From positions 1 to 47,492 of the forward strand of contig JAYVIL010000021.1 in assembly GCA_043770255.1 (NCBI GenBank): 47,492 bases of DNA. The letters run 5' to 3'. The stretch's first letter is position 1, and every line of letters starts with the position of its first letter. Source of the stretch: Candidatus Kaiserbacteria bacterium (lineage in GTDB: Bacteria > Patescibacteriota > Minisyncoccia > Phycocordibacterales > UBA918). The notes under the pieces were generated by a model. That model saw only the letters and a list, made by a program, of their open reading frames with translations, was not told the DNA's origin and ran no database searches. Position numbers and translations under genes: made by a program. Below are positions 18,623 through 41,069 of the stretch, one piece after another.

Positions 18623-18691
18623 AATTAGCTATTTCTTAATCCACCAAAAGGTTTCAGGACTTTCATTAGGGATAGAAAGTCGGAACAAAGT

Positions 18692-18895: not shown

Positions 18896-18936
18896 TAAAT
18901 TCGAAATAATCGCTACGCTCATTTTCTCATTTAAAA

Positions 18937-20259: not shown

Positions 20260-20269
20260 TCTGAGTTAC

Positions 20270-20339
20270 ATAGTTAAATAGTTTCATTGTTGCAAAGTGG
20301 TCACAACTACACCATGCAACCATGCAACTATTTAACTAT
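20270..20339 (+). repeat. Inverted repeat in the 152-nt gap between the ABC ATPase and permease genes
   Basis: Perfect 14-nt arms atagttaaatagtt (20270-20283) and aactatttaactat (20326-20339). The 42-nt spacer contains gttgca plus two copies of its complement (catgcaac catgcaac). Confidence 0.45.
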
Positions 20340-20411
20340 TCAACCAGCCCTCCTTTAAAACTGTGAGTTGCATCAAGTTAGGGGTTATATACATGTCATA
20401 ATGTATTAATA

Positions 20412-21620: not shown

Positions 21621-21622
21621 TC

Positions 21623-21743
21623 GGACATTCTCAAATGGCACATTTCTTCGTTGCGCTGCGGTAAATTATTATTCACCGTACGATGGGTACGGCTCATAAT
21701 AATTTCCTTGCGCGCCTCGAACTGTACTCATTTGAAAATGTCC
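21623..21743 (+). terminator. 121-nt imperfect palindrome (long hairpin) starting 3 nt after the permease stop
   Basis: Outer stem ggacattctcaaatg/catttgaaaatgtcc (14 of 15 bp), middle stem aaattattat/ataataattt (10 bp), apical stem ccgtac/gtacgg (6 bp, loop gatgg). Followed by ttggttgctttg. It could be a terminator, a stabilising hairpin or a REP/MITE-like element. Confidence 0.5.
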
Positions 21744-21843
21744 TTGGTTGCTTTGAAAAATTTTTTAACGACGAGTGAGTAAGTGTGTGTATAACTTGGG
21801 TATAGTCGGGGGGATATCAGCTAAAATGAATAGGTAAATTATT

Positions 21844-23736
21844 ATGACGTACAACAAACAAGAACTGCCGCGGTATGTAGAAACTGCCGGAAAAATAACC
21901 ATTTTAACAGCATTAACAGGAGTATTAATCTTTGCCTTTATTTTCATTTTAAATATCGGTAAAACAGAGTTACAAAAAGCCGAAGCCCAGTCTGGTACCG
22001 CGACCACCACTTTGACCGTGCTTAACACGCCACCAGTGTGGACCGTCGGACAGGAGGGGCGAGAAGAGTTTGAATCCTCAACCTCAACCCCAACTAACTC
22101 AGGCAATACTGTATCCTGGATTGGCCGAGCAACTGATGCCAACAACGCGCCCTATTTCTTGATTTTGTGTAGTACATCAGCTACTCCAACCGCCCAGATG
22201 TCTACCTCAACACTTGGTACTGTTCCGCCAATTTGTGCCGCTGGTACCCGTTGGGCCGTTTCTACGTCTACTGTCTCAGGCCAACAAGCTCGTGCTGCTA
22301 CTACCACTACCGAAGTAGCTCCATTCTCTGAGTCAAATATTTGGTACGCTTGGGTGTGTGATGACGATCCAGTTAACCCCCGCTGTAGTACGACATCATC
22401 TCAAGGAACCGTTGCTACGAACACTTCTCCGTTTAACGTAAACCGCCGACCTGTCTTCTCAAGCTTTACCAACAACGGTCCAACAGCACCAGGCGCAACA
22501 GTACTCTTTACCTCTTCGTCTTCTGATCTTGACGTTGTGGATGCCGCCGACACAGTCTTCCTTACCGTGTGTGGTAGTGCCGGCTTTAGCACCACTACGT
22601 TAACCTGTACCGGTGTCACCGTAGCTTCTACCTCCGTGTTTGGTGTAGTCGCGAACGCCACTACTTCACGTGTACTTCCAGCAATTATTCAGGATGCTAA
22701 CAACTATGCCGCTTTCCCATACATACATGACACCCATGGTCACGTTGCTTCAGGTGGTGCCCAAGGTGTTAACGTCGCATATACAGTTAGCAATGTCGCG
22801 CCCACAGTAGCTGGCGGTACACTCAGTTTAAATGGTGGTTCCCTGATTACTCTAACCAATCCCGGCGGTCAAACCACTGGCTACACACTTTCATATGTGG
22901 TAGCTGACGCTAACAGTTGTGACGCAGTCGGTGGTGGTAATGCCGACGAAATCACTGGTTATGTAGCTTCAGTATTTCGTTCAGGTATTGGTACTTCTAC
23001 TTGTAACGGTAGCGCTGGTAGTTATAATGCCAACAACTGTTACCCGAGCGGCGTTGCTACATCAACCTGGAACCTGTCGTGTACCGCGTCATCGACCAGT
23101 TGTACAGCCGGTGGAGCTGACGATACGATCATCTACAACTGTACGTTCCCACTTTGGTTCATCGCTGATCCAACTAACGGAACAACTACTGATACTGCTT
23201 TCTCTGCACAGCATTGGGCCGCTGGAGTCGCTGGTATCGACAATAACAGTGCCACTGGAAGTATGTCTACCTCTACCACACCAGTTGAGTTACAAAGCCT
23301 TGTCGCGATTGGTCTTCTGACAAACCTAATTGCGTACACTCAACTTGAGCCAGGTACATCCATGCCAACACTCAGTGCGTCAACTACACTGCGGGTACTC
23401 GGTAACACTGGACTGAATCAATTACTTGGTGGAGACTCAATGTGTATTGGCTACTCACCAGCTGTCGGTTGTCAGGTATCAGCGACCTCTACTATTCCGC
23501 AAAGTGAACAGCGTTATGCGACGTCAGCAGTAGCTTACGGATCAGGAGTTTCTCTTTCTCCAACATCAACTCCGGGCACGCTCTTGATTCAAATTCCAAA
23601 ACCTATCAGTACGTCAACTCCATCCACTGGACAGACCTTCTGGGGTATCGCCGTACCGGGATCAGTCTCGCTTGCTGGATCGTACACAGGACAGAACACG
23701 TTTACAGGGGCGGTCTCATCTCCTCTATCCTGGTAG
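21844..23736 (+). CDS. Cys-rich surface protein (630 aa); its C-terminal ~315 aa are homologous to the C-terminus of the giant protein
   Basis: N-terminal signal anchor ITILTALTGVLIFAFIFILNIG and Thr/Ser-rich Cys-containing modules. The segment from ...LSLNGGSLITL...NNCYPSG...LWFIADPT...IPQSEQRYATSA...TFWGIAVPGSVSLAGSYTGQNTFTG to the end aligns with giant residues ...VSLNGGNPIAL...NNCYKAN...IFFNADAT...IPADQQKFATTS...VYWGISVPAAGVNSAAHSGINVFTP. Confidence 0.85.
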   Translation: MTYNKQELPRYVETAGKITILTALTGVLIFAFIFILNIGKTELQKAEAQSGTATTTLTVLNTPPVWTVGQEGREEFESSTSTPTNSGNTVSWIGRATDANNAPYFLILCSTSATPTAQMSTSTLGTVPPICAAGTRWAVSTSTVSGQQARAATTTTEVAPFSESNIWYAWVCDDDPVNPRCSTTSSQGTVATNTSPFNVNRRPVFSSFTNNGPTAPGATVLFTSSSSDLDVVDAADTVFLTVCGSAGFSTTTLTCTGVTVASTSVFGVVANATTSRVLPAIIQDANNYAAFPYIHDTHGHVASGGAQGVNVAYTVSNVAPTVAGGTLSLNGGSLITLTNPGGQTTGYTLSYVVADANSCDAVGGGNADEITGYVASVFRSGIGTSTCNGSAGSYNANNCYPSGVATSTWNLSCTASSTSCTAGGADDTIIYNCTFPLWFIADPTNGTTTDTAFSAQHWAAGVAGIDNNSATGSMSTSTTPVELQSLVAIGLLTNLIAYTQLEPGTSMPTLSASTTLRVLGNTGLNQLLGGDSMCIGYSPAVGCQVSATSTIPQSEQRYATSAVAYGSGVSLSPTSTPGTLLIQIPKPISTSTPSTGQTFWGIAVPGSVSLAGSYTGQNTFTGAVSSPLSW

Positions 23737-24038: not shown

Positions 24039-25004
24039 ATGGAGATACTTTTTCGCAACACACTATTCAGGTTAAGTGCCTTGGTCGTCTTACTCTATTT
24101 TGCGTTTGGCACTTTGGTTGCGAGCGCTAGTTTCGGTATTACACCACCGTACGTTCGTAATACGAGCTTGACCCGAAACTCAACCTACGAGCAGCAAATC
24201 CTTCTCGTACGCGGTGATCCTAACATGCCGCTTAATGCGCAAATTGTAATTGATGCCCCTGAGATCCAAGACTGGATTGAGATTGTAGAAGGTAACACCA
24301 TTTTACTGCCGCGCGGTGAACAAAAGGTAGCTATGACTGTTCGCATCAAAGTTCCGAGCGATGCCAAGTACCAAGAGTACGAAGGTAAAATTCGTATCAG
24401 AACGCAACCAACTAATGATCAGGTGGCCGAAGGCGTAGTCAGTATTTCACTCGGAGCGCAGGTCGACATTAACCTTAACGTTATCGACAGAGTGATCGAG
24501 GATTTTAGGGTGCGTAAAATTGACGTATCTGATCTTGATGCTGGTCACAAGCTTGCCTGGTTGTTTTTCCCAGGAAAAATTAATTTTACAATGTCGCTTG
24601 AAAACACCGGTAATGTAAATATTGCTCCATCAAAAGTGCAATTCAAAATATATGACCGTACCGGTGCAGTATTGCTCGAAGAGACACATCATACAGGTAA
24701 GCTTAAAAAAATCGCTCCTTACGCGACTGAAGACGTTACGGCTCATTTACCGACACGACTACCGGCTGGTAGCTATATGGCGCGCTACACCATTTTTAAT
24801 GGAGAAGAAATAAAACAAGAAGGTGAGCTAAACCTGAGTGTATTGCCTTACGGTACACTGCAGACAGCAGGTTATGGTTTTACTGGTCTCTCGATTCCGC
24901 ATAAGATCTCAATACTGCTCCCGATTTTTGCCATTTTGATCTCTGTTCTCTATATCATCTACTACCGCCGGAAAAGCCGTAAAGACGACACTCTTATAAA
25001 CTAG
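24039..25004 (+). CDS. Membrane-anchored protein with two Ig-like domains (DUF916/DUF3324-like architecture)
   Basis: Signal peptide (LSALVVLLYFAFGTLVASA). Domain 1: FGITPPYVRN...WIEIVEGNTILLPRGEQKVAMTVRIKVPSDAKYQEYEGKIRI. Domain 2: ...FTMSLENTGNVNIAPSKVQFKIYDRTG...LPAGSYMARYTIFNG. C-terminal TM ISILLPIFAILISVLYIIYY plus RRKSRK. The family assignment is an inference. Confidence 0.75.
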   Translation: MEILFRNTLFRLSALVVLLYFAFGTLVASASFGITPPYVRNTSLTRNSTYEQQILLVRGDPNMPLNAQIVIDAPEIQDWIEIVEGNTILLPRGEQKVAMTVRIKVPSDAKYQEYEGKIRIRTQPTNDQVAEGVVSISLGAQVDINLNVIDRVIEDFRVRKIDVSDLDAGHKLAWLFFPGKINFTMSLENTGNVNIAPSKVQFKIYDRTGAVLLEETHHTGKLKKIAPYATEDVTAHLPTRLPAGSYMARYTIFNGEEIKQEGELNLSVLPYGTLQTAGYGFTGLSIPHKISILLPIFAILISVLYIIYYRRKSRKDDTLIN

Positions 25005-25005: not shown

Positions 25006-26124
25006 ATGCGAGTGCACTTCCTCTTCATTCCGCTACTGCTTGTAGTAATGGCCTTTACAGTTCCGTCGCCACGAGTTGGTGCTGATACCGTTGGTATCGC
25101 CACTACGACAATTACACTCAGTATCTGTGGCAATGGGTTAGTAGACGCCTCTGAATCGTGTGATGTGCCGGGGGAGACCGGCGTGTACAGTACGACCATT
25201 ATTGGTCGTCAGTGTACGCCTGCGTGTAGCTTTGGACCTTACTGCGGCGATGGTATTTTGCAAACACAGTTTACCGAAGAATGCGATGACGGTAATAATA
25301 CGAGCTTAGACTTTTGTTCGGCACTCTGTAAAATCGAACCAGCGGGCTCAGGTGGAGGGGGAAGTAGTGGTGGAGGTGGAAGTAGTGGTGGTGGTACTAA
25401 AGAGCTCGGAGATACACAAATAAGTGTCACAGGGCTCGGATATCCAGGTCAGACGATAAACTTTTTGCTTGATACAAAATCAGTTGGGTCAGTGCGCGCA
25501 AACAGTAGTGGGCGCTTTGAGTTCGCAGCGAACGCTTCGCCAGGCACTGCTACACTGGGTGTGTGGGCACTCGATAGTGCTGGCAAACGCTCGATTACCT
25601 TAAACAACACCTTTGACGTTACCCAAGGTGCTGTTACCAACGTTAGCGGGCTGATACTGCCACCAACAGTAAACGTCGCTAATGCCAATATTATCCCCGG
25701 GAGCATTATTGCTATTACCGGACAGAGTGTACCGTCAGTGAAAATTGACGTTCATTTTAATAACAGCGAAATAGTCGAATCAGTTCAAAGCGGACCTGAT
25801 GGTAAGTTTGCCCTTAACTTTAATTCATCAAGACTGAGAAATGCTGAATACACGATTAAAGCACGCTCAGTATCCGGTACACCACCCTTGCTTATCCAAA
25901 GTGGGTTCAGTACCTCTATCCAATTATTTGTCGGTGTCGACGGTAAATCAACCTCACCGTCTGACCTTAGTCGCGACGGCAAAGTAAACCTCGTCGACTT
26001 TTCTATCTTAATCTTTTGGTGGCAGTCCGCCGGCGGCGACTCGAATCCACCAGCTGACATAAATGCCAACGGCCGAGTGAGTTTGGAGGACTTCTCAATC
26101 CTCCTCTTTAACTGGACTGGATAG
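25006..26124 (+). CDS. Secreted protein: Cys-rich CGDG/CDDGN repeats, Gly/Ser linker, Ig-like domains, C-terminal dockerin-like repeat pair
   Basis: Signal peptide. ICGNGLVDASESCDV...YCGDGILQTQFTEECDDGNNTSLDFCSALC matches the Myxococcus-type Cys-rich repeat pattern (TIGR02232/DUF4215 type, from memory). Linker GSGGGGSSGGGGSSGGG. C-terminus DLSRDGKVNLVDFSILIFWW...DINANGRVSLEDFSILLFNW (two dockerin-like D-x-[SN]-x-[DN]-G-[KR]-V-x-L-x-D-F-S-I-L segments). The ATG lies 1 nt after the previous stop. Confidence 0.8.
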   Translation: MRVHFLFIPLLLVVMAFTVPSPRVGADTVGIATTTITLSICGNGLVDASESCDVPGETGVYSTTIIGRQCTPACSFGPYCGDGILQTQFTEECDDGNNTSLDFCSALCKIEPAGSGGGGSSGGGGSSGGGTKELGDTQISVTGLGYPGQTINFLLDTKSVGSVRANSSGRFEFAANASPGTATLGVWALDSAGKRSITLNNTFDVTQGAVTNVSGLILPPTVNVANANIIPGSIIAITGQSVPSVKIDVHFNNSEIVESVQSGPDGKFALNFNSSRLRNAEYTIKARSVSGTPPLLIQSGFSTSIQLFVGVDGKSTSPSDLSRDGKVNLVDFSILIFWWQSAGGDSNPPADINANGRVSLEDFSILLFNWTG

Positions 26125-26156
26125 TTATTAAATTTAAGATTGGATGTAGTTTTTTC

Positions 26157-26185
26157 TCGACTTTTGCAAATATTTAGCATATATT
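26157..26185 (+). promoter_or_regulatory. Candidate sigma70-type promoter for the 26211 gene
   Basis: TCGACT (26157-26162), 17-nt spacer, TATATT (26180-26185). AGGGAG Shine-Dalgarno motif at 26201-26206. Confidence 0.3.
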
Positions 26186-26210
26186 TTCTACTAGATCTGT
26201 AGGGAGATGT

Positions 26211-26897
26211 ATGATGCTGAGTAAGCTGCCTAAACGTATTATCTACACTCGACATCCACAGTGTTTGCATAACGTTGACCACGAGGGTGCTTTGCGACAG
26301 GGAATTGAAAATCGTAACTCTCCACTCACCGATGTTGGCGAGATGCAGTCCAGTATTACAGCAGAATACCTTCGAAAAGAGTTCCCTGATATTTCTAAGG
26401 TATTTTGTTCAACCTATTCTCGTACAAAAACCATTCCGATATCAGCAGGATATGAAAAACTCTTGTCCGAGAGCCCTCTCCTTGATGAAAGAAGTATGGG
26501 TGTTTGGCATAGATATTTGCGAGAAGAAGTTTTAAAACGGTATCCCGATGAAGATGTTCGCATTAAAACATTAGGATACTATGCCTATGAAGCGCCTGAG
26601 GGTGAGTCATGTACAGGGGTAGAGGAACGACTGAATAAATTTCTCCTCCTCAATACATTAGGAGAATTAAGCGACACTATCTATATTTCGGGGCATGGGA
26701 TTTCAGGACTTTGTCTAAGACGCTTACTTACAGGAGCAAGTGTCGAAGACTGGCACTCGTGGGATCGTTTGAAGAATGCCTCGGTGTCTATCTACGAACG
26801 TCATGGTAGTGGATATATTTGCTCGAGTTACAATTTGGTTCCTTGGGAAGGTGTCATTGATCCAGCACTGCTAATTAAAAAAAGCACTGAAGCATGA
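26211..26897 (+). CDS. Histidine phosphatase superfamily (phosphoglycerate mutase-like) protein
   Basis: IYTRHPQCLHN (RH catalytic core; RHP instead of RHG), STYSRTKTI, LDERSMGVWH and ISGHGISGLCL occur in the order typical of branch-1 histidine phosphatases. SD AGGGAG upstream; TGA stop followed by a terminator. Confidence 0.72.
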   Translation: MMLSKLPKRIIYTRHPQCLHNVDHEGALRQGIENRNSPLTDVGEMQSSITAEYLRKEFPDISKVFCSTYSRTKTIPISAGYEKLLSESPLLDERSMGVWHRYLREEVLKRYPDEDVRIKTLGYYAYEAPEGESCTGVEERLNKFLLLNTLGELSDTIYISGHGISGLCLRRLLTGASVEDWHSWDRLKNASVSIYERHGSGYICSSYNLVPWEGVIDPALLIKKSTEA

Positions 26898-26901
26898 AGC
26901 A

Positions 26902-26932
26902 AAAGTCGCTCATTGTGAGCGGCTTTTTTTTC
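26902..26932 (+). terminator. Rho-independent terminator
   Basis: aaagtcgctca / tgagcggcttt with a 3-nt loop, running into an eight-T tract (26924-26931). Confidence 0.8.
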
Positions 26933-26977
26933 TTTACATATAGGCTGTCCATGTCTCACTATACGGCCATAAAATGT

Positions 26978-27003
26978 TTAGCCCTGCAATGATGCAGGGC
27001 TAA
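26978..27003. terminator. 11-bp perfect hairpin, probable terminator of the minus-strand small ORF
   Basis: ttagccctgca (26978-26988) atga tgcagggctaa (26993-27003). It lies 33 nt beyond the small ORF stop on the minus strand. The U-tract is only partial on either strand. Confidence 0.5.
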
Positions 27004-27035
27004 TTTCAAATGTTAGATGCTGTAGACTGAACCAT

Positions 27036-27200
27036 CTAAGCTTCAGTAACATCAAAGACGGCATTGATGTGAATCCAAGAGGCTGCTTCTTCCTCTGCCT
27101 CATCGTCAGGGATTCCTCTGGTGATCAGTCGTGCCTTGAACCGTAGGAATCGGTCATGTTGGAGTAAAATAGCAAGCGTCAGTTTAGTGTACATGTCCAT
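27036..27200 (-). CDS. Small hypothetical protein (54 aa), the only minus-strand gene candidate
   Basis: Below the ORF-track length cutoff. MDMYTKLTLAILLQHDRFLRFKARLITRGIPDDEAEEEAASWIHINAVFDVTEA*. Strong SD AAGGAG (27209-27214, minus strand) 8 nt before the ATG, and a hairpin downstream. No family recognised. Confidence 0.45.
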   Translation of the reverse strand: MDMYTKLTLAILLQHDRFLRFKARLITRGIPDDEAEEEAASWIHINAVFDVTEA

Positions 27201-27282
27201 CACGTTTTCTCCTTGTGTGACAGTAAATATAACTTGTAAGTAAGAATAAAAGTTATGAGATTGTCACAAGCAAGTACGTATT

Positions 27283-27320
27283 AAAATCCAACCATACGAT
27301 TAATCGTATGGTTGAATTTT
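27283..27320. repeat. 38-nt near-perfect palindrome (candidate operator) in a divergent intergenic region
   Basis: aaaatccaaccatacgatt|aatcgtatggttgaatttt; 18 of 19 positions are symmetric. Confidence 0.5.
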
Positions 27321-27448
27321 ATAAAGTTTTTATCGAATATTTTTTTGAAATGTGTCTGATAAATATTAAATTTGTGTATAAGTTTTCTAAAAATAAATTT
27401 GTGCAGTATACAATGAACTAGTACTTGTTTTGGGGGTATCAATTATGA

Positions 27449-27457
27449 TGCTATAGT
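27449..27457 (+). promoter_or_regulatory. Candidate extended -10 promoter element TGCTATAGT
   Basis: TG-n-TATAGT. The same motif form (TGGTATAGT) occurs at 44869-44877. The -35 is weak (TTTGGG). Confidence 0.3.
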
Positions 27458-27485
27458 TGCGTTTTTACGTAGCTAAATTTCCTTC

Positions 27486-27568
27486 AGCCGGGAGTTCCGG
27501 GACAGGTATGCTTATTTTTCCATATATGTAATCGGTGTGGAGACTGATTACGGTTCCCGGCTTTTTTA
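27486..27568 (+). promoter_or_regulatory. Long stem-loop closed by a GC-rich stem plus a T6 tract (leader attenuator or sRNA terminator candidate)
   Basis: agccggga (27486-27493) pairs with tcccggct (27555-27562) and is followed by ttttt. There is an inner hairpin gtaatc.../...gattac (27528-27551). A second copy of ccggga (27497-27502) could pair with the same 3' arm instead. Confidence 0.4.
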
Positions 27569-27643
27569 AAGCGAGGAAGCTGTCGTATGCGTCTTTGTAC
27601 ACACATATCTCGGCACTAGTAGGCTAATACAACGTAGAGAAAT

Positions 27644-28795
27644 ATGAGTAGAACGAATACCACGTTCGGACTACTCCAAGCTATTGCAGCGACAGCTATC
27701 CTCGCCACACTTCTGTGGTCAGTCGGACTGCCGTCATTCCGTTTTGCGGAAGCTGCAAGTGTCACGTCGCTTAGCGACACCCTCTCTGATTCAGCACCTA
27801 GTGTGGGATCAAATCATACCCTGACCTTTGTAACACCAACTGGTATTGCAAATGGTTCAACTATTACAATTAGTTTAGCTAATGGACCGTTTCTACTCGG
27901 AAGTACCACTTTTGCTGAAGTTGACGTAGTTGACGGAAACACTAATCTTAGTGTTGCTGCCAGTTGCGCAGCGACTGACGAAATTGGATTTTCAACCAGT
28001 ACTAACCTCATTACGCTCACTTTTTGTAGTGGTGACGGAGCATCAATCGACCCAGCGGGCACGACTACCATCAGAATTGGTACCCATGCCACGTTTGGAA
28101 CAACCGGTACAAAACAATTAAGAAATCCAGGAGTAGGGTCATATGAAATTGACATTACTGCCGGAGCTTCTGACACTGGTTCTACCCGAGTTGCGATTAT
28201 CGCACCAGTTGTCGTGACGGCTGCTGTTGATACCAGTTTTACTTTTACAGTAGCTGGTCTCGCAGGAGGAACTGACGTTAATGGTCTTGTAACAACTGGT
28301 TCGTCCACCGCTACAGCTATTGCCTTTGGTGCTCTTACTGCGAATAACGCGTCTTCAGCTGCACAAAGGCTGAGCGTATCAACAAATGCCAGTTATGGTT
28401 TTGCCGTGACTGTGCAAACTGATCAACAGTTGACTTCGTCCTCAGGGGCAGATATTGATGGTTTCCTTAATGGAAGCTACAGCAGTACGCCACTGTCATG
28501 GAGTCCGCCGACAGCATCTATCGCAAACGAAAACACCTGGGGTCATTGGGGTCTTACCTCAAATGATGCGACCTTTGGGGTAACAGATCCGTTTGATGTA
28601 GGAGGAGCTGGTGAATTGTTTGTATCAGCATCGACGACACCAGTTCAAGTATTTCGCCATGGTGGACCATCTGATGGCACAACCCAAAATATTGGGCGAG
28701 CTGACGTGGCTTACCAAGTACAAATATCTGCTTTGCAAGAAGCGGGAAATGATTACACGGCTACGCTGACATACGTAGCAACTCCAGTATTCTAA
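27644..28795 (+). CDS. Secreted 383-aa surface protein with a WxL-like C-terminal domain (candidate major subunit)
   Basis: Signal peptide/anchor FGLLQAIAATAILATLLWSVGLPSFRFAEA. N-terminal beta-rich domain (LSDTLSDSAPSVGSNHTLTFVTPTG...). The last ~187 aa (28232-28792) align with the last ~172 aa of the 2052-aa protein and end in YTATLTYVATPVF*. Has its own leader and terminator. Confidence 0.85.
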   Translation: MSRTNTTFGLLQAIAATAILATLLWSVGLPSFRFAEAASVTSLSDTLSDSAPSVGSNHTLTFVTPTGIANGSTITISLANGPFLLGSTTFAEVDVVDGNTNLSVAASCAATDEIGFSTSTNLITLTFCSGDGASIDPAGTTTIRIGTHATFGTTGTKQLRNPGVGSYEIDITAGASDTGSTRVAIIAPVVVTAAVDTSFTFTVAGLAGGTDVNGLVTTGSSTATAIAFGALTANNASSAAQRLSVSTNASYGFAVTVQTDQQLTSSSGADIDGFLNGSYSSTPLSWSPPTASIANENTWGHWGLTSNDATFGVTDPFDVGGAGELFVSASTTPVQVFRHGGPSDGTTQNIGRADVAYQVQISALQEAGNDYTATLTYVATPVF

Positions 28796-28840
28796 TTCGT
28801 TAAGAATAGAATAGTGGATCCAAGCTTGGAGTACAATGCA

Positions 28841-28880
28841 AAAAACCCTATCTCCCACCACGAGTAGGGTTTTTGCTTTG
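28841..28880 (+). terminator. Rho-independent terminator
   Basis: aaaaacccta (28841-28850) / tagggttttt (28865-28874), 14-nt loop, followed by gctttg. Confidence 0.7.
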
Positions 28881-28914
28881 TGTACAAAGCCCGTGAGTAT
28901 TTTATTTGGTGAGC

Positions 28915-28920
28915 TATAAT
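28915..28920 (+). promoter_or_regulatory. Consensus -10 box TATAAT 11 nt upstream of the ATG at 28932
   Basis: Perfect TATAAT with no SD motif between it and the start. This implies a leader of 4-5 nt or less if it is used. Confidence 0.35.
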
Positions 28921-28931
28921 GTTTATATATT

Positions 28932-29936
28932 ATGAGGTATCTTTTCTTAGCCCTGCTTTTGTCGTTATACGCTACCCCTGCTTTCGCTGCGACGCTGTAC
29001 ATGGATCCCAACACAGTCAGTCTCAATCGTGGTGATGCGGCTAAGGTATCAATCAGACTCGATACCGACGAAGCCTTGGGTGAGTGTATCAATGCGGTTG
29101 ACGCAGTTATCTCCTACAGTGAGAGTATTGTCCCGGTTGATATTACAATAGGGAAATCCATTTTCCCGATGTGGGTAGAGGCTCCGGTAATTAACAAAGC
29201 AGAGCGCACAATTTCTTTTGCCGGAGGCATTCCAAATGGCTACTGTGGTCGGGTACAGGGCGACCCTAATCTCACTAACACTTTGGTTGAAATTTTCTTT
29301 AGAGCGCCAGGTATGCAGGTTGGCGGCGGCGAAGCACGTTCGGCTGCTACGGTGCAGTTTAGCGATGAAACCACAGCCTATCTAAATGACGGCTTGGGCA
29401 CTAAGGCTCCCTTACAAAAAATTGGCGCGAACTTTGCTTTGGCTGATACTGTTGGGAGTTCCATTATCGATCCCTGGAGTGGAGATGTGCAAGCTGACGA
29501 TATTCCACCCGAAGAGTTTGGTGCGACTATCGAATCAATTGATGGTAAATGGTTTGTTGTTTTTAATACCACTGATAAACAGACGGGGATTAGTCATTAC
29601 GAAGTTATCGAAGAGGCCTACGCTAAATCAATATTATTTGATTTCGGTGCCGCTAATGCACCGTGGATTGAAACCCGTAGTCCGCATGTGCTCAAAGATC
29701 AGAGTCGCAATAGTGTCGTCAGAGTAAAAGCAATTGATAAAGCAGGGAATGAATACATCGTAACGTTACCAGTAGACGCCGCTCTACAAAGCTTCAGACT
29801 TACACCGGAGATGATGGTACTGGCGGGTGCTGGTTTAGTGGCGTTGCTTTTGCTGGCCGGTCTAATAATCTGGCTCACCCGTAAACGCAGAGCAAAGCTG
29901 GCGGCAATAGTCGAAGATCAAGCGCATCTAGAATAA
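28932..29936 (+). CDS. Cohesin-like domain protein, C-terminally membrane-anchored
   Basis: Signal peptide MRYLFLALLLSLYATPAFA. Domain LYMDPNTVSLNRGDAAKVSIRL...INAVDAVISYSESIVPVDITIGKSIFPMWVEAPVINKAERTISFAGGIPNGYCG...VEIFFRA is paralogous to the domains in the 29942 and 32369 proteins. C-terminal TM MMVLAGAGLVALLLLAGLIIWL plus TRKRRAK. Confidence 0.72.
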   Translation: MRYLFLALLLSLYATPAFAATLYMDPNTVSLNRGDAAKVSIRLDTDEALGECINAVDAVISYSESIVPVDITIGKSIFPMWVEAPVINKAERTISFAGGIPNGYCGRVQGDPNLTNTLVEIFFRAPGMQVGGGEARSAATVQFSDETTAYLNDGLGTKAPLQKIGANFALADTVGSSIIDPWSGDVQADDIPPEEFGATIESIDGKWFVVFNTTDKQTGISHYEVIEEAYAKSILFDFGAANAPWIETRSPHVLKDQSRNSVVRVKAIDKAGNEYIVTLPVDAALQSFRLTPEMMVLAGAGLVALLLLAGLIIWLTRKRRAKLAAIVEDQAHLE

Positions 29937-29941
29937 ACTGT

Positions 29942-31687
29942 ATGACACAAACATTTACAGTCAAAAAAATACTGAGAGGCGTTTTTGCCGTAGCGGGGTT
30001 TTTTCTCCTCACTCCGCTTTTTAGTCAGGCTGCTTCATTGTCTGTTTCGCCGGGAACTGGTGTCTATAAAACTGGGTCTACGTTTACGGTCACAGTGGCT
30101 GTGAATACGTCAGGTGTACCCGTTAATGCCTGTGATGGGACGCTGTCTTTTAACCCGAGGGAGCTATCGGTGGTAGCTGTTTCGCGTGGGGCCTCAATTT
30201 TCAATCTGTGGACGACTGAGCCAGCATTCTCAAACACCGCTGGTACGGTAACGTTTTCAGGTGGAGTACCAACTGGTTTTACGGGGACTTTTGGTAACGT
30301 GATGACGGTTACCTTTAGAGCGCTCACTTCAGGGAGTGCTCGAGTATCCCTTACCGGAGCTTCAGTTTTAGCAGCAGATGGTAGGGGTACCAATGTGTTG
30401 ACTACCATGAACGGCGGAACCTACACACTGTCAGCCGTGGAGTCACAGCCAGCTCCCGAAGTGATTGTAGAGTTTGTGGCGCCTGCTAATACTCCAAGCG
30501 CGCCGGTAGTAACCTCTACTTCACATCCCGATCAAAATGGCTGGTCAAAAGAGAAGAACGCCACTCTCAATTGGTCAGTCCCCGCTGGTGTGATCGCTGT
30601 TAGAACTGGACTTGATAACAGTCCAGTCGCTATTCCTACAAAAGTGTACGATAGCCCTATCAAAACTCTCACCCTAAATGACGTTGATGAAGGAGTCTCT
30701 TATTTACATATTCAATTCAAAAATGCCGACGGCTGGGGGAAGGTCGCCCACTATAAATTCTCGGTCGACTCACAAAAACCAGAATCCTTTGAGATCTCGC
30801 TTCCAGAAAGTGCCGATGCTTCAAATCCTAACCAAACACTTAAACTTAATATCGTTGATAAAACCTCACCAGTTAAAAAATTCAAAGTGCAGTTAGACGG
30901 CGGTGAACCCTACGAACATACCGCTTCAGGCACTGATGCTACCCTCACACTTACCGGCCTTACTCCGGGCTATCATACGGTAGTGATCGAAGGTTTTGAT
31001 GCGGCGGGTAACTCCCTCATTGCGAGTTTCTCATTTACGATTACCTCTTTTGAAAAACCGGTTATTACTGATTACCCCAGCACGCTAAACTCAGGAGTGA
31101 TACCAGTTATTCGCGGGACAACCAAAGCTTTGGCGACAGTAAAAGGGATTCTGATCGACGCTAAGGGCGGAGAGATAATTGTCGAAGGTGTAGCTGACGC
31201 CAGTGGTAATTTTAGTTTGATTCCGAGTGAAGCTCTTTCAACTGGCCGCTATACACTGACTGCCCGCGCGATTGATACAGCTGGGGCACAAAGTGAGCCG
31301 TCTGACGTGATAACGATTATGGTTTCAAAGCCAGGTTACCTTGCAGTCGGATCATTCCTGATTAGTTTCTTCTCGGTCTTGATTCCACTGATTGCGCTGT
31401 GTGTTTTGACCTGGATGACACTCATTTACTCACTACGTAAAATGGGCAGACAGCGCAAGCAAGTCATTGTTGAGTCTGAAGAGGCCGCCATGATGTTGGC
31501 GACAGAATTTAGACACCTCGAACAGGTGCTTATGGCTGAAGAAGCGACCTTGCTCCAGTCGCATAAAACTGGCAAACTAACGAAGGCAGAAGTAGCAATG
31601 TTTGTGGAATTAAAATCGGCTTTGGCAGAGGCCAAGAGACGTGTTGGAAAAGAAGTGGACGATGTTACTCATGTATTCAAAAAATAA
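29942..31687 (+). CDS. Cohesin-like domain + Ig-like domains, TM anchor and cytoplasmic coiled tail
   Basis: Signal peptide. LSVSPGTGVYKTGSTFTVTVAVNTSGVPVNACDGTLSFNPRELSVVAVSRGASIFNLWTTEPAFSNTAGTVTFSGGVPTGFTGTFGNVMTVTFRA...VLAADGRGTNVL. Ig-like units (e.g. VIRGTTKALATV...GNFSLIPSEALSTGRYTLTARAIDTAGAQS). TM FLISFFSVLIPLIALCVLTWMTLIY, then a charged helical tail of about 90 aa. Confidence 0.75.
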   Translation: MTQTFTVKKILRGVFAVAGFFLLTPLFSQAASLSVSPGTGVYKTGSTFTVTVAVNTSGVPVNACDGTLSFNPRELSVVAVSRGASIFNLWTTEPAFSNTAGTVTFSGGVPTGFTGTFGNVMTVTFRALTSGSARVSLTGASVLAADGRGTNVLTTMNGGTYTLSAVESQPAPEVIVEFVAPANTPSAPVVTSTSHPDQNGWSKEKNATLNWSVPAGVIAVRTGLDNSPVAIPTKVYDSPIKTLTLNDVDEGVSYLHIQFKNADGWGKVAHYKFSVDSQKPESFEISLPESADASNPNQTLKLNIVDKTSPVKKFKVQLDGGEPYEHTASGTDATLTLTGLTPGYHTVVIEGFDAAGNSLIASFSFTITSFEKPVITDYPSTLNSGVIPVIRGTTKALATVKGILIDAKGGEIIVEGVADASGNFSLIPSEALSTGRYTLTARAIDTAGAQSEPSDVITIMVSKPGYLAVGSFLISFFSVLIPLIALCVLTWMTLIYSLRKMGRQRKQVIVESEEAAMMLATEFRHLEQVLMAEEATLLQSHKTGKLTKAEVAMFVELKSALAEAKRRVGKEVDDVTHVFKK

Positions 31688-31694
31688 TCCCGTT

Positions 31695-32372
31695 ATGAAA
31701 TCAAATTCCCGCCCGGTGACGCTCGCTATTTTATTGGTAGTGGCCGTCGTAATTGCACTCTACTTTATCATTCGCTCAACGGTAAATACACAAAACCGTG
31801 AGACACTGCTGCAACTTAACAACACAATTGATGCCCAAGAAAAAGTCCTGATCTCACTCGCAGAAGCCACTCGTCGAAATGGTGCCGATACAGTCACGGC
31901 TCGCATTGTGGTTGATTGCAATTCGGCTGACAGACAACGTTTTGATAGTTTGCTTGATTTGCTCTCCAGCACTATCTCACCCGCAGAGCTTAGTGAATTG
32001 AGCACCCTGTTTTTTAAATGTGGTAGTTTTTTTGCTGATACCAAATCTGTAATGGCGATCAAACTGCAGCGCGAAGTAGAAATATTAGCCGAGTACGCAG
32101 AACTGCGAGAAAAAATAAACAACCAAAACCTGTCTGTAGACACGAAAATAGCCGCCTGGAAGAACTTAAGTGAAGCGGAGCTCAAGACAGCTGAATATTT
32201 TAATCAACTCGTGGTGCTGCAAGGTACGATTATTGCTGAACTGCAAAGTGGTAAAAAGCCCACAGCACCGACTATCGTCGATGCCCTGAGTAAGGTCGCC
32301 TCAGTGCGTGGTCAAATGCAAGTTCTGAGCCAGCAAATTGAAATCTACAAAACCGAAGCTCTAACCCTATGA
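31695..32372 (+). CDS. Membrane-anchored helical protein of unknown function (225 aa)
   Basis: I prefer the ATG at 31695 (MKSNSRPVTLAILLVVAVVIALYFII...), 8 nt after the upstream stop, over the track's 31641 start inside the previous gene. The rest is predicted helical. TGA overlaps the next ATG (ATGA at 32369-32372). Confidence 0.7.
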   Translation: MKSNSRPVTLAILLVVAVVIALYFIIRSTVNTQNRETLLQLNNTIDAQEKVLISLAEATRRNGADTVTARIVVDCNSADRQRFDSLLDLLSSTISPAELSELSTLFFKCGSFFADTKSVMAIKLQREVEILAEYAELREKINNQNLSVDTKIAAWKNLSEAELKTAEYFNQLVVLQGTIIAELQSGKKPTAPTIVDALSKVASVRGQMQVLSQQIEIYKTEALTL

Positions 32373-33124
32373 AATTATTCCGGAAATTTTTAAATAAAAT
32401 ATTTCCGACGTTTGGACTTAAAAACTCCCCAACTGTCAGGTACGCGTTCTCGTTCTTGTTTGTGTTTGCAGCAATTGCGAGTATTGCAGCTGTATCCGGC
32501 AGTAAGGGTTCGTACATAAAAGTTGTTTCCAGTAGTAATGCGGTCGAGGTGGGAGGGAATTTCACGCTGGAGGTCTACGTATTTGCTGATAAGCCTATTA
32601 ATGCAGTTGATATCAGCGTGCTCTATCCTGAAACGCAAGTTGAGGTGCTAGGGATTGATAAGGGAGAGTCAGTGCTCACGCTGTGGACAGAAGAGCCTTC
32701 TGTGCGCAACGGGGCTGTTATTTTACGCGGCGGTACTTTTAAACGTGGTTTTGTTGGTGAACACAAGATTGCGACGATTAATGTCAAAGCAAAAACCGCC
32801 GGCAGTGCACAATTTTTAGCGGGGGAAGTGAAGCTGCTCGCAGGTGACGGCAAGGGGACAAATATCATCGCCGATACTACCCGAGCCAAGATTTTAACCA
32901 GTATATTTAAAGCGGGCGAGAAACCACCTACCACTACATTCGCCGGGTCAGTTAGTTTTGTCGTAGTGACAGATATTGATGGCGACGGATCGGTCTCATT
33001 GACAGATATCAGCTCTTTTATGGCAAACTGGGCTTCAAAAGAACGACAGTTTGATTTTAATAATGATGGACAGATGACGTTTAGAGATTTTTCAATTATT
33101 CTCTCAGATTATTTTACGAAGTAG
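32369..33124 (+). CDS. Protein carrying both a cohesin-like domain and a dockerin-like repeat pair
   Basis: N-terminal TM (YAFSFLFVFAAIASIAAV). GGNFTLEVYVFADKPINAVDISVLYPETQVEVLGIDKGESVLTLWTEEPSVRNGAVILRGGTFKRGFVGEHKIATINVKA...LLAGDGKGTNI. C-terminus TDIDGDGSVSLTDISSFMANW...FDFNNDGQMTFRDFSIILSDY. Confidence 0.75.
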   Translation: MKLFRKFLNKIFPTFGLKNSPTVRYAFSFLFVFAAIASIAAVSGSKGSYIKVVSSSNAVEVGGNFTLEVYVFADKPINAVDISVLYPETQVEVLGIDKGESVLTLWTEEPSVRNGAVILRGGTFKRGFVGEHKIATINVKAKTAGSAQFLAGEVKLLAGDGKGTNIIADTTRAKILTSIFKAGEKPPTTTFAGSVSFVVVTDIDGDGSVSLTDISSFMANWASKERQFDFNNDGQMTFRDFSIILSDYFTK

Positions 33125-33235: not shown

Positions 33236-34837
33236 GTGATCAAAGCCAACCAAATTCAAAAGAATATACAACCACGTCAGGTAACACTTTACCGTAACGT
33301 GTTTTATTCCCGTGTATCTACTACGGTAGTTTTGTTGCTGTGCATATCTTTCCTGTTACAGCCAATTGAGCGAGCCTATGCCTCCGAAGTTGCTCAAACC
33401 GAAGCGACCTCAAACGAAATTATTAATCTAGCAGTTGATGCTGGTTTGTCTAAAGAGACACCTACGATTGAAGATGTGGGGGGCGATGTGAACGCAGCAG
33501 TTGATACTGAAACAAAGACATTGCCGGCAGAAGTTCCAGACGCAACTGAAGCCACCACAACAACTGCTACAACCACCACTGATGTTGCTTCTACAGCGAC
33601 CACTTCAGATGAGGTGGTTGCAGAAGATGAAGGGGCTATTTCTACTACGACGGAATTTACTGATGAAGAAATTGCGGCTCTCATTAATCCAGAAGATGAG
33701 TTGCCAGAAACTGATCTAGGTACAACAACTGCCACCACGACCGAAATCTCCGTACCAGTAACTACGGTTCATAGTGATGCGGTTATGCAATTTAATCGCA
33801 ATGATTGTGTAACTGTTGAAGACGGATCATTCTATTGTCAAACTAAAAAAGAAGAAGTAGAGCAAGGAACAGATGGTATGTACGCCCTCCAAGATAAAGA
33901 CGGCGATTTAGAGATTTTCCTTCAGAAAAATGGTGAGCTCACACAGCTTACTTTTAACCAGATTGATGATGCCGGCCCTAACTTTGACTCAAAATCTAAT
34001 TCAATTGTCTGGCATCGGTTAGTAAATGAACGGTACCAAATTATTGCTTATGATCTTTCTACAAAAGAAGAAGTGCAGCTGACGGCAGATAGTGTCAACA
34101 ACATGGAACCAAGTCGTTCAGGTCAGTATACGGTCTGGCAAAGATGGAATGGTGATAACTGGGACGTTGTTCTGTACGATGGTCGCGAGACAAAATTTAT
34201 TACGGATAGTCCACTACACGATATAGCGCCCAACGTGAAAGGTGATTTAGTGATGTGGAATAGACTCAATACTGATAATACGCAGACAATTGAGCTGTAC
34301 GATATTGTAACTTCGGAATATACGACTATCACAGATGATGAAGGCGGCGCCTTGTCTAATCCCCGCATGGTATTGGTTTACGAAACAGAATTCGCTAACG
34401 GCGACGTAGTGACTAAAGGTTACGATGTCGAAACCGGTGAAATTACACCTTTGGCAAATGACCCAGCCGAACTACCCGACGAACTGCCAGAACCTGATGC
34501 TACGGGTGAGACGAGGGCTTTATTGCAACCGAAAAATCCTACCAAAGAAGACACTGAGATAACTGATGGTTTGTTTCCAGGAATAGACGGTGATGGTTTG
34601 GGTAGCGCCACTAGTACCGCCACCAGTACCCCACAAGTGGCTACCGGAGATTTAAACCTGTCGTCATCAACCCTCGCGATAGCGGGCAGTACACCAAACG
34701 CTTCTACCAGTCAGAGCGTTCTTGAAATGACACTCGATTTGACACCTGAGGTGGCGCTTAATCCTGATACCTCTCTCGACCTAGTTATTACGCCGTTTGT
34801 TCCAACGATGGAGAGTAGTTTAGAAGTCGTAGAGTAG
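33236..34837 (+). CDS. Secreted/anchored protein: acidic Thr-rich region + propeller-like repeats + acidic tail
   Basis: GTG start, which is uncertain (an internal GTG giving MFYSRVSTTVVLLLCISFLLQP... is possible). Repeats of about 45 aa: IVWHRLVNERYQIIAYDLSTKEEVQLT / YTVWQRWNGDNWDVVLYDGRETKFIT / LVMWNRLNTDNTQTIELYDIVTSEYTTIT / MVLVYETEFANGDVVTKGYDVETGEITPL. Confidence 0.7.
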   Translation: MIKANQIQKNIQPRQVTLYRNVFYSRVSTTVVLLLCISFLLQPIERAYASEVAQTEATSNEIINLAVDAGLSKETPTIEDVGGDVNAAVDTETKTLPAEVPDATEATTTTATTTTDVASTATTSDEVVAEDEGAISTTTEFTDEEIAALINPEDELPETDLGTTTATTTEISVPVTTVHSDAVMQFNRNDCVTVEDGSFYCQTKKEEVEQGTDGMYALQDKDGDLEIFLQKNGELTQLTFNQIDDAGPNFDSKSNSIVWHRLVNERYQIIAYDLSTKEEVQLTADSVNNMEPSRSGQYTVWQRWNGDNWDVVLYDGRETKFITDSPLHDIAPNVKGDLVMWNRLNTDNTQTIELYDIVTSEYTTITDDEGGALSNPRMVLVYETEFANGDVVTKGYDVETGEITPLANDPAELPDELPEPDATGETRALLQPKNPTKEDTEITDGLFPGIDGDGLGSATSTATSTPQVATGDLNLSSSTLAIAGSTPNASTSQSVLEMTLDLTPEVALNPDTSLDLVITPFVPTMESSLEVVE

Positions 34838-34905
34838 TGTGGTGTAATAATCACTCTCTACAGGTACTTGTTTGAGTCAAGCTAAAAGCATGAGAAAATA
34901 AACCC

Positions 34906-41064: not shown

Positions 41065-41069
41065 ATTAT

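Follow-up and report, generated by a model that had tools for sequence, protein, structure and literature searches.

What could cohesins and dockerins hold together at a locus that encodes no recognisable carbohydrate-active enzyme? These modules are known above all for holding cellulosomes together, and their many non-cellulosomal occurrences are mostly without an assigned role. The question is raised by a contig of a Candidatus Kaiserbacteria bacterium, analysed here over its whole stretch of 47,492 nucleotides (the 47-kb window). A preliminary description of this DNA had proposed a cohesin-dockerin network that organizes surface and adhesion components rather than glycoside hydrolases. The evidence favours, with a probability of about 0.6, a genuine non-cellulosomal cohesin-dockerin set, anchored in the membrane, through which non-enzymatic surface proteins are attached in CPR/Patescibacteria. 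A search of the literature on cohesins and dockerins in CPR, Patescibacteria, and Parcubacteria revealed no description of such a system, and only a remark from 2013 on a "cellulosome-related cluster".

Gene content of the window

The features are listed in Table 1. Several genes are tightly packed: 1 nt separates g24039 from g25006 and 5 nt separate g28932 from g29942, while the stop codon of g31641 overlaps the start codon of g32369 (ATGA). Scans of the window for tRNAs and Rfam families found nothing, and a promoter/terminator scan gave counts at chance level.

Table 1. Features of the cohesin-dockerin region and its surroundings
Feature	Position (nt)	Strand	Description
g251	251..17158	+	5635-aa giant surface protein with DUF2341 domains; C-terminal ~300 aa homologous to g21844
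Upstream core	17180..23736	+	fn3 protein g17180, ABC ATPase g18937, MacB-type permease g20412, g21844 (Pfam)
g24039	24039..25004	+	321 aa; signal peptide, Ig-like domains, C-terminal TM helix; paralogous to g41070 and g42025
g25006	25006..26124	+	372 aa; signal peptide, Cys-rich DUF4215/TIGR02232 head, G/S linker, two Ig-like domains (Big_6, CarboxypepD_reg-like), C-terminal dockerin
g25006 dockerin	~25960-26121	+	aa 319-372; Pfam Dockerin_1
g27644	27644..28795	+	383 aa; pilin-like subunit, abundant, highly conserved; N-terminal beta-sandwich and C-terminal domain
g28932 (CohA)	28932..29936	+	334 aa; signal peptide, cohesin-like domain aa ~20-165, Ig-like domain, C-terminal TM aa 295-313
g29942 (CohB)	29942..31687	+	581 aa; signal peptide, cohesin aa ~30-160, Ig-like stalk (Big_13 and others), TM aa 472-490
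g31641	31695..32372	+	225 aa from likely start 31695; N-terminal TM and helical/coiled-coil region
g32369 (CohC-DocY)	32369..33124	+	251 aa; N-terminal membrane segment aa 26-44, cohesin aa ~46-182, short linker, dockerin aa 199-251
Downstream conserved genes	33236..43683	+	g33236, g34906, g41070, g42025 (synteny, Pfam, NCBIfam)

The surroundings of the cohesin and dockerin genes, which the preliminary description had passed over, form a conserved surface cluster that encodes giant proteins and pilin-like subunits together with an ABC transporter of the MacB type. g21844 is a Cys-rich protein of 630 aa with an N-terminal TM, and its C-terminus is homologous to that of the giant g251 (BLASTP E=2e-18). 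A second giant, g34906 (2052 aa), shares its last ~280 aa with g27644 (hhalign 99.7%). g33236 combines a TM with a beta-propeller-like part. g41070 and g42025 are paralogues of g24039 (hhalign 98.1% between g24039 and g41070), and g42025 also has a LytR_C domain. No family could be assigned to g31641 with Pfam or NCBIfam; the public gene call for it has 225 aa.

The cohesin modules

A domain of about 130 aa is common to g28932, g29942, and g32369, and family HMMs run over the window proteins confined it to these three. The resemblance goes well beyond chance. BLASTP linked g29942 to g32369 at E=9e-14 and to g28932 at E=1.5e-10, and g28932 to g32369 at E=3e-3; comparisons of family with family by hhalign gave these pairs probabilities of 99.0%, 99.8% (E=2e-27), and 97.7%, respectively. 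In Pfam, g29942 scores 32.1 bits against PF00963 (cutoff 24.1), and 56 of its 66 orthologues match Cohesin as well, the best at E=1.5e-11. No Cohesin match was obtained in Pfam for g32369 itself; 11 of 25 relatives have one (best E=8.6e-9). g28932 gave no direct match either, and only 4 of 64 orthologues did, which counts against a cohesin there. Sequence profiles therefore place g29942 in the family directly, and g28932 and g32369 through their relatives and the profile-profile links of 97.7-99.8%.

Searches of the PDB with the single sequences of g29942, g28932, and g32369 returned nothing or EF-hand proteins only, and family profiles of g32369, g28932, g27644, and g24039 gave weak matches there or none. 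The identification as cohesins is therefore based on Pfam, on the profile-profile links, and on the fold. The AF2 model of g32369 shows aa 48-180 folded entirely into beta structure, with a pLDDT of ~90. Cohesins make up 49 of the 50 matches listed by Foldseek against the PDB; among these, 2xdh is the closest (E=1.3e-8) and 2vo8 has the highest TM-score (0.82, in a range of 0.67-0.82 for cohesins, normalised to the target). For g32369, the model thus points to the nine-stranded beta-sandwich (jelly-roll) of cohesins. The cohesin-like domain of g28932 holds an invariant pair, Cys52/Cys105. All three paralogues have the motifs S-I-F-x-L-W-T-x-E-P, G-G-x-P-x-G, and D-G-x-G-T, which are not known to be typical of cellulosomal cohesins.

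The dockerin modules

The tails of g25006 and g32369 match each other (BLASTP E=4e-4; hhalign 97.3%), and family HMMs found the dockerin in no other window protein. A regular expression for the 12-residue loop, applied to the 22 proteins called in the window, hit exactly four loops, at aa 320 and 351 of g25006 and at aa 202 and 229 of g32369. Both proteins exceed the cutoff of PF00404 (Dockerin_1, 22.9 bits) with 24.1 and 24.4 bits, respectively, and scores of 33-36 bits are reached in distant relatives. The domain was detected in 48 of 49 orthologues of g25006 and in 22 of 25 members of the g32369 family. Both tails carry the duplicated calcium-loop/helix segment of ~22 residues with ligands at positions 1, 3, 5, and 12: D or N stands at positions 1, 5, and 12 in 96-100%, and D, N, or S at position 3; at position 12, every sequence has Asp. 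An Asp at this position is the dockerin pattern, whereas canonical EF-hands carry Glu there. In the model of g32369, helices at 211-223 and 238-250 follow the loops (pLDDT 82-90). The loops are 31 aa apart in g25006 and 27 aa apart in g32369, the latter being shorter than in classical dockerins.

Of the domains measured, the g25006 dockerin varies least (p-distance 0.17), and far less than the remainder of the protein, as is expected of an interface. Against this assignment stands the fact that EF-hand models also match the tails, EF-hand_1 being present in 25 of 25 members of the g32369 family, and that, in the PDB, the profile of this family matches EF-hand proteins best by sequence (E=1e-4), with a dockerin coming after them (E=5.5e-3).

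Much of what the preliminary description had read from the letters has held. Its four open reading frames lie on the + strand where it had placed them, with every quoted peptide present; the paralogy of the three domains and the duplicated calcium loops at the ends of g25006 and g32369 were both recovered, and the secreted g25006 is indeed a Cys-rich protein with a dockerin at its end, its DUF4215 and Big_6 domains scoring above the Pfam cutoffs. The proposed identities are also correct: the modules are cohesins and dockerins, on the basis of Pfam matches above threshold, the AF2 model with its PDB matches, profile-profile probabilities of 97-99.8%, and near-invariant calcium-ligand positions. 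The proposed profile checks came out well for both dockerins and, among the cohesins, for g29942 but not directly for g28932 or g32369.

Membrane anchors and a fixed set

Hydropathy predicts a C-terminal TM helix in g28932 and in g29942; in g29942 it is followed by a cytoplasmic helical tail of ~90 aa with conserved residues. These two proteins had been proposed as anchoring scaffoldins. The anchor stands, but each has one cohesin, and they are therefore anchors and not scaffoldins. g32369, for which 770 full-length homologues were found, does combine a cohesin with a dockerin, as had been noted. An adaptor role had been suggested for it, but it is probably not a free adaptor, because a membrane segment of its own, with invariant residues, lies at its N-terminus. 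This segment had been overlooked in the preliminary description.

The gene block is collinear at 70 Patescibacteria loci, with g31641 found at 67 and relatives of g251 at 64 of them. At the 36 loci with full flanks, to which the count is limited, there are without exception (36/36) three cohesin ORFs and two dockerin ORFs, one ORF carrying both modules. What had first been called a network is therefore not open and variable but a fixed set of three cohesins and two dockerins in a conserved CPR surface-apparatus locus. Dockerin and cohesin genes have remained neighbours in four rearranged variants (L069, L074, L078, and L082). The part that recurs in rearranged lineages consists of the fn3 protein, the MacB-type ABC transporter, g21844, g24039, the dockerin protein, CohA, and CohB; the upstream core genes (fn3, ABC ATPase, MacB-type permease, and g21844) adjoin the dockerin and cohesin genes in L069, L074, and L078, and g24039 belongs to this invariant core, being present in the minimal modules of the same three. 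A mirror-tree partial-correlation test of cohesin-dockerin co-evolution over 42 species gave no pairing, with inter-protein r <=0.4, which counts against the attachment reading.

Exchangeable heads on a common stalk

The Ig-Ig-dockerin stalk of g25006 bears different non-enzymatic heads in other lineages. Among the best 150 representative clusters with this dockerin subtype, 75 have the same non-enzymatic stalk; the Cys-rich head was found in 7, the g27644 N-domain in 22, and other heads in 18, all three types on this stalk. The N-domain of g27644 is fused to Ig-Ig-dockerin in other lineages. A Pfam scan of ten sampled carriers of the subtype showed only Ig-like domains and Dockerin_1 in all ten. 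The claimed lack of carbohydrate-active modules is borne out by these carriers and by the window itself, whose proteins gave no match to a GH or CBM family. As a whole, the first interpretation of the modules is partly supported.

The cohesins of g28932, g29942, and g32369 may be sockets that stand above the membrane at various heights, into which the dockerins, with their paired calcium-binding F-hand loops and helices, would plug. Proteins that carry exchangeable heads on Ig stalks would in this way be fastened to the cell surface. Binding is predicted to depend on calcium, and pairs would be chosen among three cohesins and two dockerins; one socket would be left over, which counts against this reading. 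The set may be part of a larger apparatus encoded at the same locus, comprising the MacB-type ABC transporter, g21844, g24039-type proteins, g27644, and the giants; its probable role is in adhesion or in cell-to-cell contact. More tentatively, Paceibacteria-type CPR may possess an undescribed MacB-coupled surface machine, a non-enzymatic "adhesosome", in which transmembrane cohesin sockets receive dockerin-tipped Ig stalks with interchangeable adhesive heads, and the g27644 N-domain is mounted by a pilin-type C-domain or by a dockerin, depending on the lineage.

The pilin-like subunit and the Pam pilus

The Pam pilus, described from Saccharimonadia and Microgenomatia, is built of pilins in which an N-terminal beta-sandwich is joined to a C-terminal domain, and has helper proteins with a C-terminal TM (Troman et al. 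2026, bioRxiv 10.64898/2026.03.03.709456). Its hallmarks are an Ig-like C-domain that is truncated and that a donor strand completes, and membrane-anchored chaperones of the PapD/FimC type; C-terminal TM anchors have been described for PamR (Troman et al. 2026). The window may likewise contain a CPR-specific surface-filament locus. g27644, with more than 1,700 homologues, scores 22.1 bits against the Pam pilin C-domain model NF058581 (NCBIfam), far below the cutoff of 55 and over positions 3-44 of 148, and 34 of 46 orthologues match at E<0.01 (best 1e-7). The sequences suggest a distant resemblance below threshold, and g27644 was not assigned to the family. Its AF2 model is confident in the N-terminal domain and poor in the C-terminal domain as a monomer (pLDDT 27-65), and Foldseek returned generic Ig-like or pilin-like matches only (SpaD at E=8.8e-4, BslA), which leaves the Pam link without support from the fold. 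The layout of PamC and PamD, which runs from a signal peptide to a TM, recurs in g24039, g41070, and g42025. No sequence link of the g24039 family to PapD-like chaperones was found. A WxL/Csc-type surface complex was also considered for this family and rejected, as WxLIP_PGBD matched below threshold and in only 4 of 56 members.

Alternative explanations

It is unlikely, though less so than the other alternatives, that the modules do not interact at all, the tails being calcium-binding EF-hand pairs that stabilize the proteins or bind envelope polymers and the cohesin-like domains ordinary beta-sandwich stalks. The EF-hand matches of the g32369 family, the motifs atypical of cellulosomal cohesins, and the lack of a one-to-one match between cohesins and dockerins would all fit. 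Such independence is difficult to reconcile with modules kept in fixed numbers, even in one polypeptide, across 70 genomes and their rearrangements, with Dockerin_1 scores above the curated cutoff and Asp at position 12 of every loop, or with the interface-like conservation of the g25006 dockerin. Slightly less probable is a pilus base, in which the cohesin proteins, comparable to PamR with its TM anchors, would serve a Pam-like pilus of the donor-strand type as its basal anchors or terminators, and g32369 would self-associate, head-to-tail or intramolecularly, in building or gating the base; the locus would then serve to anchor a pilus rather than to display cargo. The sub-threshold similarity of g27644 and its orthologues to the Pam pilin C-domain speaks for it, as do the PamC- and PamD-like proteins and a C-terminal domain common to g27644 and the giant g34906, as would be found in a major subunit and a tip adhesin. 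However, the minimal modules of L069 and L078 keep the dockerin protein, CohA, and CohB with no adjacent pilin-like gene, the Pam paper mentions neither cohesin nor dockerin, nor a MacB transporter or giant proteins, and neither the g27644 model nor the sequences of the g24039 family tie the locus to pilins or chaperones of that kind.

The least probable alternative, and a quite doubtful one, is a true organizer of enzymes resembling a cellulosome, on whose cohesins dockerin-bearing glycoside hydrolases encoded elsewhere in the genome would assemble. Kantor et al. can be cited in its support, and in L078 the module is followed, after a few genes, by a GH130 gene. A cellulosome has a multi-cohesin scaffoldin together with dockerin-bearing CAZymes and a CBM, and none of these was found in the 47-kb window, where each cohesin protein has a single cohesin; the Ig-only carriers of the dockerin subtype and the fixed ratio of three to two argue in the same direction. 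The attachment system for non-enzymatic surface proteins remains the preferred explanation.

Comparison with known systems

Single-cohesin surface anchors of the cellulosome, such as OlpA and OlpC of C. thermocellum, are among the closest parallels. They share with the present anchors one cohesin per protein, retention at the surface, a presumed capture of dockerins, and the predicted fold: the Foldseek matches of g32369 include structures of such anchors (PDB 3ul4 and 4dh2). Anchors of the OlpA/OlpC type use SLH domains, whereas a transmembrane helix is predicted here; the presumed partners are non-enzymatic Ig-stalk proteins, the window is without CBM or GH, the ratio is fixed at three to two, and the host is a CPR bacterium.

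The cohesin of Archaeoglobus fulgidus (2xdh), the closest structural match among those listed, has a sequence identity of only ~14% and comes from an organism without a cellulosome. There, too, a single protein unites the two modules. No cluster with MacB, pilin-like, or giant proteins is known in A. fulgidus, and binding of its pair was shown by experiment, whereas here it is predicted. According to PMC9705933 (citing Voronov-Goldman 2011), a non-cellulosomal archaeal pair binds and has been used for surface attachment. The Clostridium perfringens cohesins (2vo8, 2jh2, and 2w1n), which include the match of highest TM-score, are another non-cellulosomal use of the fold; they belong to secreted glycoside hydrolases, unlike the membrane anchors without enzyme described here. 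The amylosome of Ruminococcus bromii includes proteins carrying both a cohesin and a dockerin. It is a cohesin-dockerin assembly outside cellulose degradation (PMC4611034). It organizes amylases and starch-binding proteins, whereas no enzyme is evident here.

Biological significance

An enzyme-free set of three cohesins and two dockerins is thus present across a large uncultured CPR group, in a locus of giant surface proteins and pilin-like subunits. This corrects an earlier genome-based reading, in which similarly annotated clusters were taken as evidence of polysaccharide degradation, and provides a testable hypothesis for surface assembly in Paceibacteria, presumably for host attachment. 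Provided that the predicted binding occurs, the pairs would amount to small docking modules with mutual specificity and a possible use in protein engineering. If the tentative "adhesosome" reading is true, cohesin-dockerin docking would be a core element of the surface with which these ultrasmall bacteria contact their hosts.

Cohesin and dockerin modules

The four open reading frames (ORFs, named by their start coordinates) in which a preliminary description had placed a cohesin-dockerin network are all present on the + strand, namely g25006 (372 aa), g28932 (334 aa), g29942 (581 aa) and g32369 (251 aa), and every peptide quoted from them was located. The domains of about 130 aa in g28932, g29942 and g32369 are paralogues, as had been proposed, with a similarity well beyond chance in BLASTP (E=9e-14, 1.5e-10 and 3e-3 for the three pairs) and in profile-profile comparison, where the domain-family profiles, with 64-70 orthologues each, align pairwise at 99.0%, 99.8% and 97.7% probability. 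The duplicated calcium-loop segments also proved real. Across the 22 proteins called in the window, a regular expression for 12-residue loops returned exactly four, of which g25006 and g32369 have two each; the C-terminal tails of these proteins resemble each other (BLASTP E=4e-4; profile-profile 97.3%). Family HMMs detected no further cohesin-like or dockerin-like domains among the 22 proteins, giants included.

The domain call of both kinds of module is solid. Among the three putative cohesins, g29942 exceeds the curated PF00963 (Cohesin) cutoff directly (32.1 bits against 24.1), with a match in 56 of 66 orthologues, while the preliminary assignment of g32369 and g28932 found no direct match in this search. 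Relatives of g32369 do match PF00963 (11 of 25, best E=8.6e-9). Its residues 48-180 were modelled confidently by AlphaFold2 from a 25-sequence alignment (pLDDT ~90), and cohesins make up 49 of the 50 PDB matches listed by Foldseek for this model, the top ones including the non-cellulosomal cohesin of A. fulgidus (2xdh, E=1.3e-8) and a C. perfringens cohesin (2vo8, TM 0.82). The weakest case of the three is g28932, with PF00963 matches in only 4 of 64 relatives; its family profile aligns with that of g29942 at E=2e-27. The motifs S-[IV]-[FL]-x-[LM]-W-[TV]-x-[EA]-P, G-G-x-[PF]-x-G-[FY]-x-G and D-G-x-G-T are common to all three paralogues and are not known as typical features of cellulosomal cohesins. 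In g28932, the cysteines C52 and C105 are an invariant pair.

Both dockerin candidates exceed the PF00404 (Dockerin_1) cutoff of 22.9 (g25006, 24.1 bits; g32369, 24.4 bits), and the model matches 48 of 49 and 22 of 25 of their respective relatives. The tails also match EF-hand models, and among the PDB sequence matches of the family profile a dockerin (E=5.5e-3) ranks behind EF-hand proteins (E=1e-4). Such matches are expected because the dockerin fold derives from the EF-hand, and by sequence alone the two are not cleanly separable. Alignments of 49 and 70 orthologues show D, N or S with almost no exception at loop positions 1, 3, 5 and 12, and position 12 is Asp in every sequence. An Asp here follows the F-hand pattern of dockerins; canonical EF-hands carry Glu instead. 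The AlphaFold2 model predicts a helix after each loop. The g25006 dockerin is the most conserved domain measured, with a mean p-distance of 0.17, compared with 0.40 elsewhere in the protein, as expected of an interface.

Membrane topology

Both g28932 and g29942 carry a signal peptide and a C-terminal transmembrane (TM) helix, so that their proposed role as membrane-anchored scaffoldins stands as regards anchoring; a multi-cohesin scaffoldin is absent. The presence of both a cohesin and a dockerin in g32369 was upheld, but the protein is probably membrane-anchored itself rather than a free adaptor, since it has an N-terminal hydrophobic segment (aa 26-44), which is preceded by invariant T22 and F27. 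The ~90-aa predicted cytoplasmic tail of g29942 (aa 491-581) contains invariant E511, E550 and E571 and a K-x-x-K-L-T motif. These conserved cytoplasmic parts of g29942 and g32369 hint at an intracellular partner or trans-membrane signalling. The Cys-rich protein g25006 bears a dockerin, as described, behind a DUF4215/TIGR02232 repeat head and two Ig-like domains, and as regards membrane targeting has a signal peptide only.

Coordinates of features of the cohesin-dockerin locus
Feature	Position	Strand	Description
g251	251-17158		5635-aa giant ORF with DUF2341 domains and an Ig_Rha78A_N-like domain
g251 C-terminus	~16200-17158		last ~300 aa
MacB-type ABC transporter	18937-21620		ATPase and MacB_PCD/FtsX permease
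g21844	21844-23736		630 aa, TM/Cys-rich
g24039	24039-25004		Ig-like, C-terminal TM
g26211	26211-26897		histidine phosphatase (His_Phos_1, 68 bits)
Hairpin	26901-26927	+	terminator-like, after g26211
g27644	27644-28795		383 aa, pilin-like
g28932 cohesin	28989-29426	+	
g29942 cohesin	30029-30421	+	
g29942 tail	31410-31687		predicted cytoplasmic
g32369 N-terminus	32369-32500		aa 1-45
g32369 cohesin	32504-32914	+	
g33236	33236-34837		N-terminal TM, acidic Thr-rich linker, weak TolB-like beta-propeller repeats
g34906 C-terminus	40219-41064		last ~280 aa of a 2052-aa giant
g41070	41070-42047		paralogue of g24039
g42025	42025-43683		paralogue of g24039, with LytR_C domain

Conservation of the locus

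The g32369 family comprises 770 full-length homologues, and screening of a single genome for each species yielded 70 loci, almost all labelled Patescibacteria/CPR (Kaiserbacteria, Paceibacteria, Nomurabacteria, Parcubacteria and some 'Saccharibacteria'), with one labelled Acidimicrobiales. A complete genome, CP060229.1, carries the locus as L029. The nearest belong to a Patescibacteria group genome (81% identity) and a Kaiserbacteria genome (78%). The order g21844-g24039-g25006-g27644-g28932-g29942-g31641-g32369-g33236-g34906-g41070-g42025, where g31641 is a TM/coiled-coil ORF, is collinear in nearly all 70 loci at 40-88% identity. All 36 loci with full flanks encode exactly three cohesin-like and two dockerin ORFs, one ORF having both; in the lineage of the window, one cohesin is without a dockerin encoded nearby. 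Genes are tightly spaced, with gaps of 1 nt (g24039/g25006) and 5 nt (g28932/g29942) and an ATGA overlap (g31641/g32369). The phosphatase gene g26211, between g25006 and g27644, is a lineage-specific local insertion, as none of the 70 related loci has it; the hairpin behind it is the strongest terminator-like one on the + strand of the scanned region. The gene g33236 directly follows the cohesin-dockerin gene in 63 of 70 loci.

Dockerin carriers and rearranged loci

With the g25006 dockerin as query, an exhaustive search gave 2,074 representative clusters at E<=1e-3, and heads were examined in the best 150. Among these, the Ig-Ig-dockerin stalk of g25006 is joined to differing N-terminal heads: a Cys-rich one as in g25006 (7 clusters), one homologous to the N-domain of g27644 (22 clusters, E down to 6e-16), or another or unknown one (18 clusters), several of the 'other' heads aligning over their full length with the dockerin-bearing fusion protein P0273. 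A Pfam scan of ten carriers found Ig-like domains and Dockerin_1 above cutoff and nothing else.

Related loci with rearranged gene order occur in other lineages. In L074, on JGI contig Ga0172379_10000902, a fusion of a g27644 head with a dockerin immediately precedes fn3, ABC ATPase, MacB permease, g21844-like and g24039-like genes and those for the g25006-, g28932- and g29942-type proteins; within the stretch examined, a separate g27644 gene was not found. L078 holds only this module (fn3, MacB transporter, g21844-like, g24039-like, dockerin and two cohesin genes), followed by unrelated genes. L069 has the same module, in which fn3 was not seen, and a divergently oriented cohesin-dockerin gene, and again unrelated genes follow the module. 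In L082, a cohesin gene of the g29942 type lies two genes downstream of the fusion, which adjoins genes for pilin-like, g41070-like and giant proteins; insertions around the fusion and cohesin genes comprise an FGE-sulfatase-family gene and an HSP20 gene (9153-9995 and 11864-12352 of that locus). Dockerin and cohesin genes thus remain neighbours through at least four rearrangements. The head of g27644, the major pilin-like subunit, can be carried by either a pilin-type C-domain or a dockerin. The MacB-type ABC transporter is always upstream of the g25006, g28932 and g29942 genes, including in L069, L074 and L078.

Relation to known systems

The absence of glycoside hydrolase and carbohydrate-binding module families was confirmed for the whole 47-kb window, and the data argue against an enzymatic reading of this locus. 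The locus is not a cellulosome, a multi-cohesin scaffoldin, CAZymes and CBMs all being absent from the window. The proposed working principle is known from the single-cohesin anchoring proteins of cellulosomes and from the non-cellulosomal cohesin-dockerin pairs of A. fulgidus and C. perfringens.

The surroundings also resemble the Pam pilus, a donor-strand pilus specific to CPR bacteria that was described from Ca. Mycosynbacter amalyticus in 2026 and includes membrane-anchored chaperones and a membrane-anchored terminator; cohesin, dockerin and Paceibacteria are not mentioned in that study (bioRxiv 10.64898/2026.03.03.709456). The pilin-like g27644 is very abundant (> 1,700 matches), highly conserved and without annotation. 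It matches NCBIfam NF058581, 'Pam pilus system pilin subunit', at 22 bits, below the cutoff of 55; 34 of 46 orthologues also match this model (best E=1e-7). The paralogues g24039, g41070 and g42025, with a signal peptide, Ig-like domains, a C-terminal TM helix and weak WxLIP_PGBD matches, have the same architecture as the Pam chaperones PamC and PamD. No sequence evidence for a chaperone role was found in these three, and searches with the g24039 family gave no informative match. The model of g27644 is confident in the N-domain only. Membership in the Pam system was not adopted, the likeness being a resemblance only, with a match below cutoff, generic fold matches and an uninformative g24039 family.

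The C-terminal ~280 aa of g27644 correspond to those of the giant g34906 (profile-profile 99.7%), and the C-terminus of g21844 matches that of g251. Such pairs of a small and a giant protein with a common C-terminus recall the division between major subunit and tip adhesin, and may belong to two different fibres. Parts of g34906 are homologous to internal segments of g251, the size of which varies strongly between lineages, since the relatives recovered from the other loci are far shorter, with a median recovered length of ~1,800 aa.

Proposed attachment mechanism

We infer that the cohesins and dockerins bind each other and that the set serves in attachment. The TM-anchored cohesins would form sockets at differing heights above the membrane, on stalks of ~130 aa in g28932 and ~310 aa in g29942 and close to the membrane in g32369. 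Binding of the g25006 and g32369 dockerins to these sockets would depend on calcium and would hold proteins with Ig stalks and non-enzymatic heads on the apparatus encoded by the rest of the locus.

No published description of this cohesin-dockerin system was found in the literature; a remark of 2013 on a 'cellulosome-related cluster' may concern a different locus. What is new is the transmembrane anchoring, the fixed 3:2 stoichiometry, the non-enzymatic cargo with swappable heads and the coupling to a conserved CPR surface-apparatus locus, a genomic context for cohesins and dockerins that is both new and testable.
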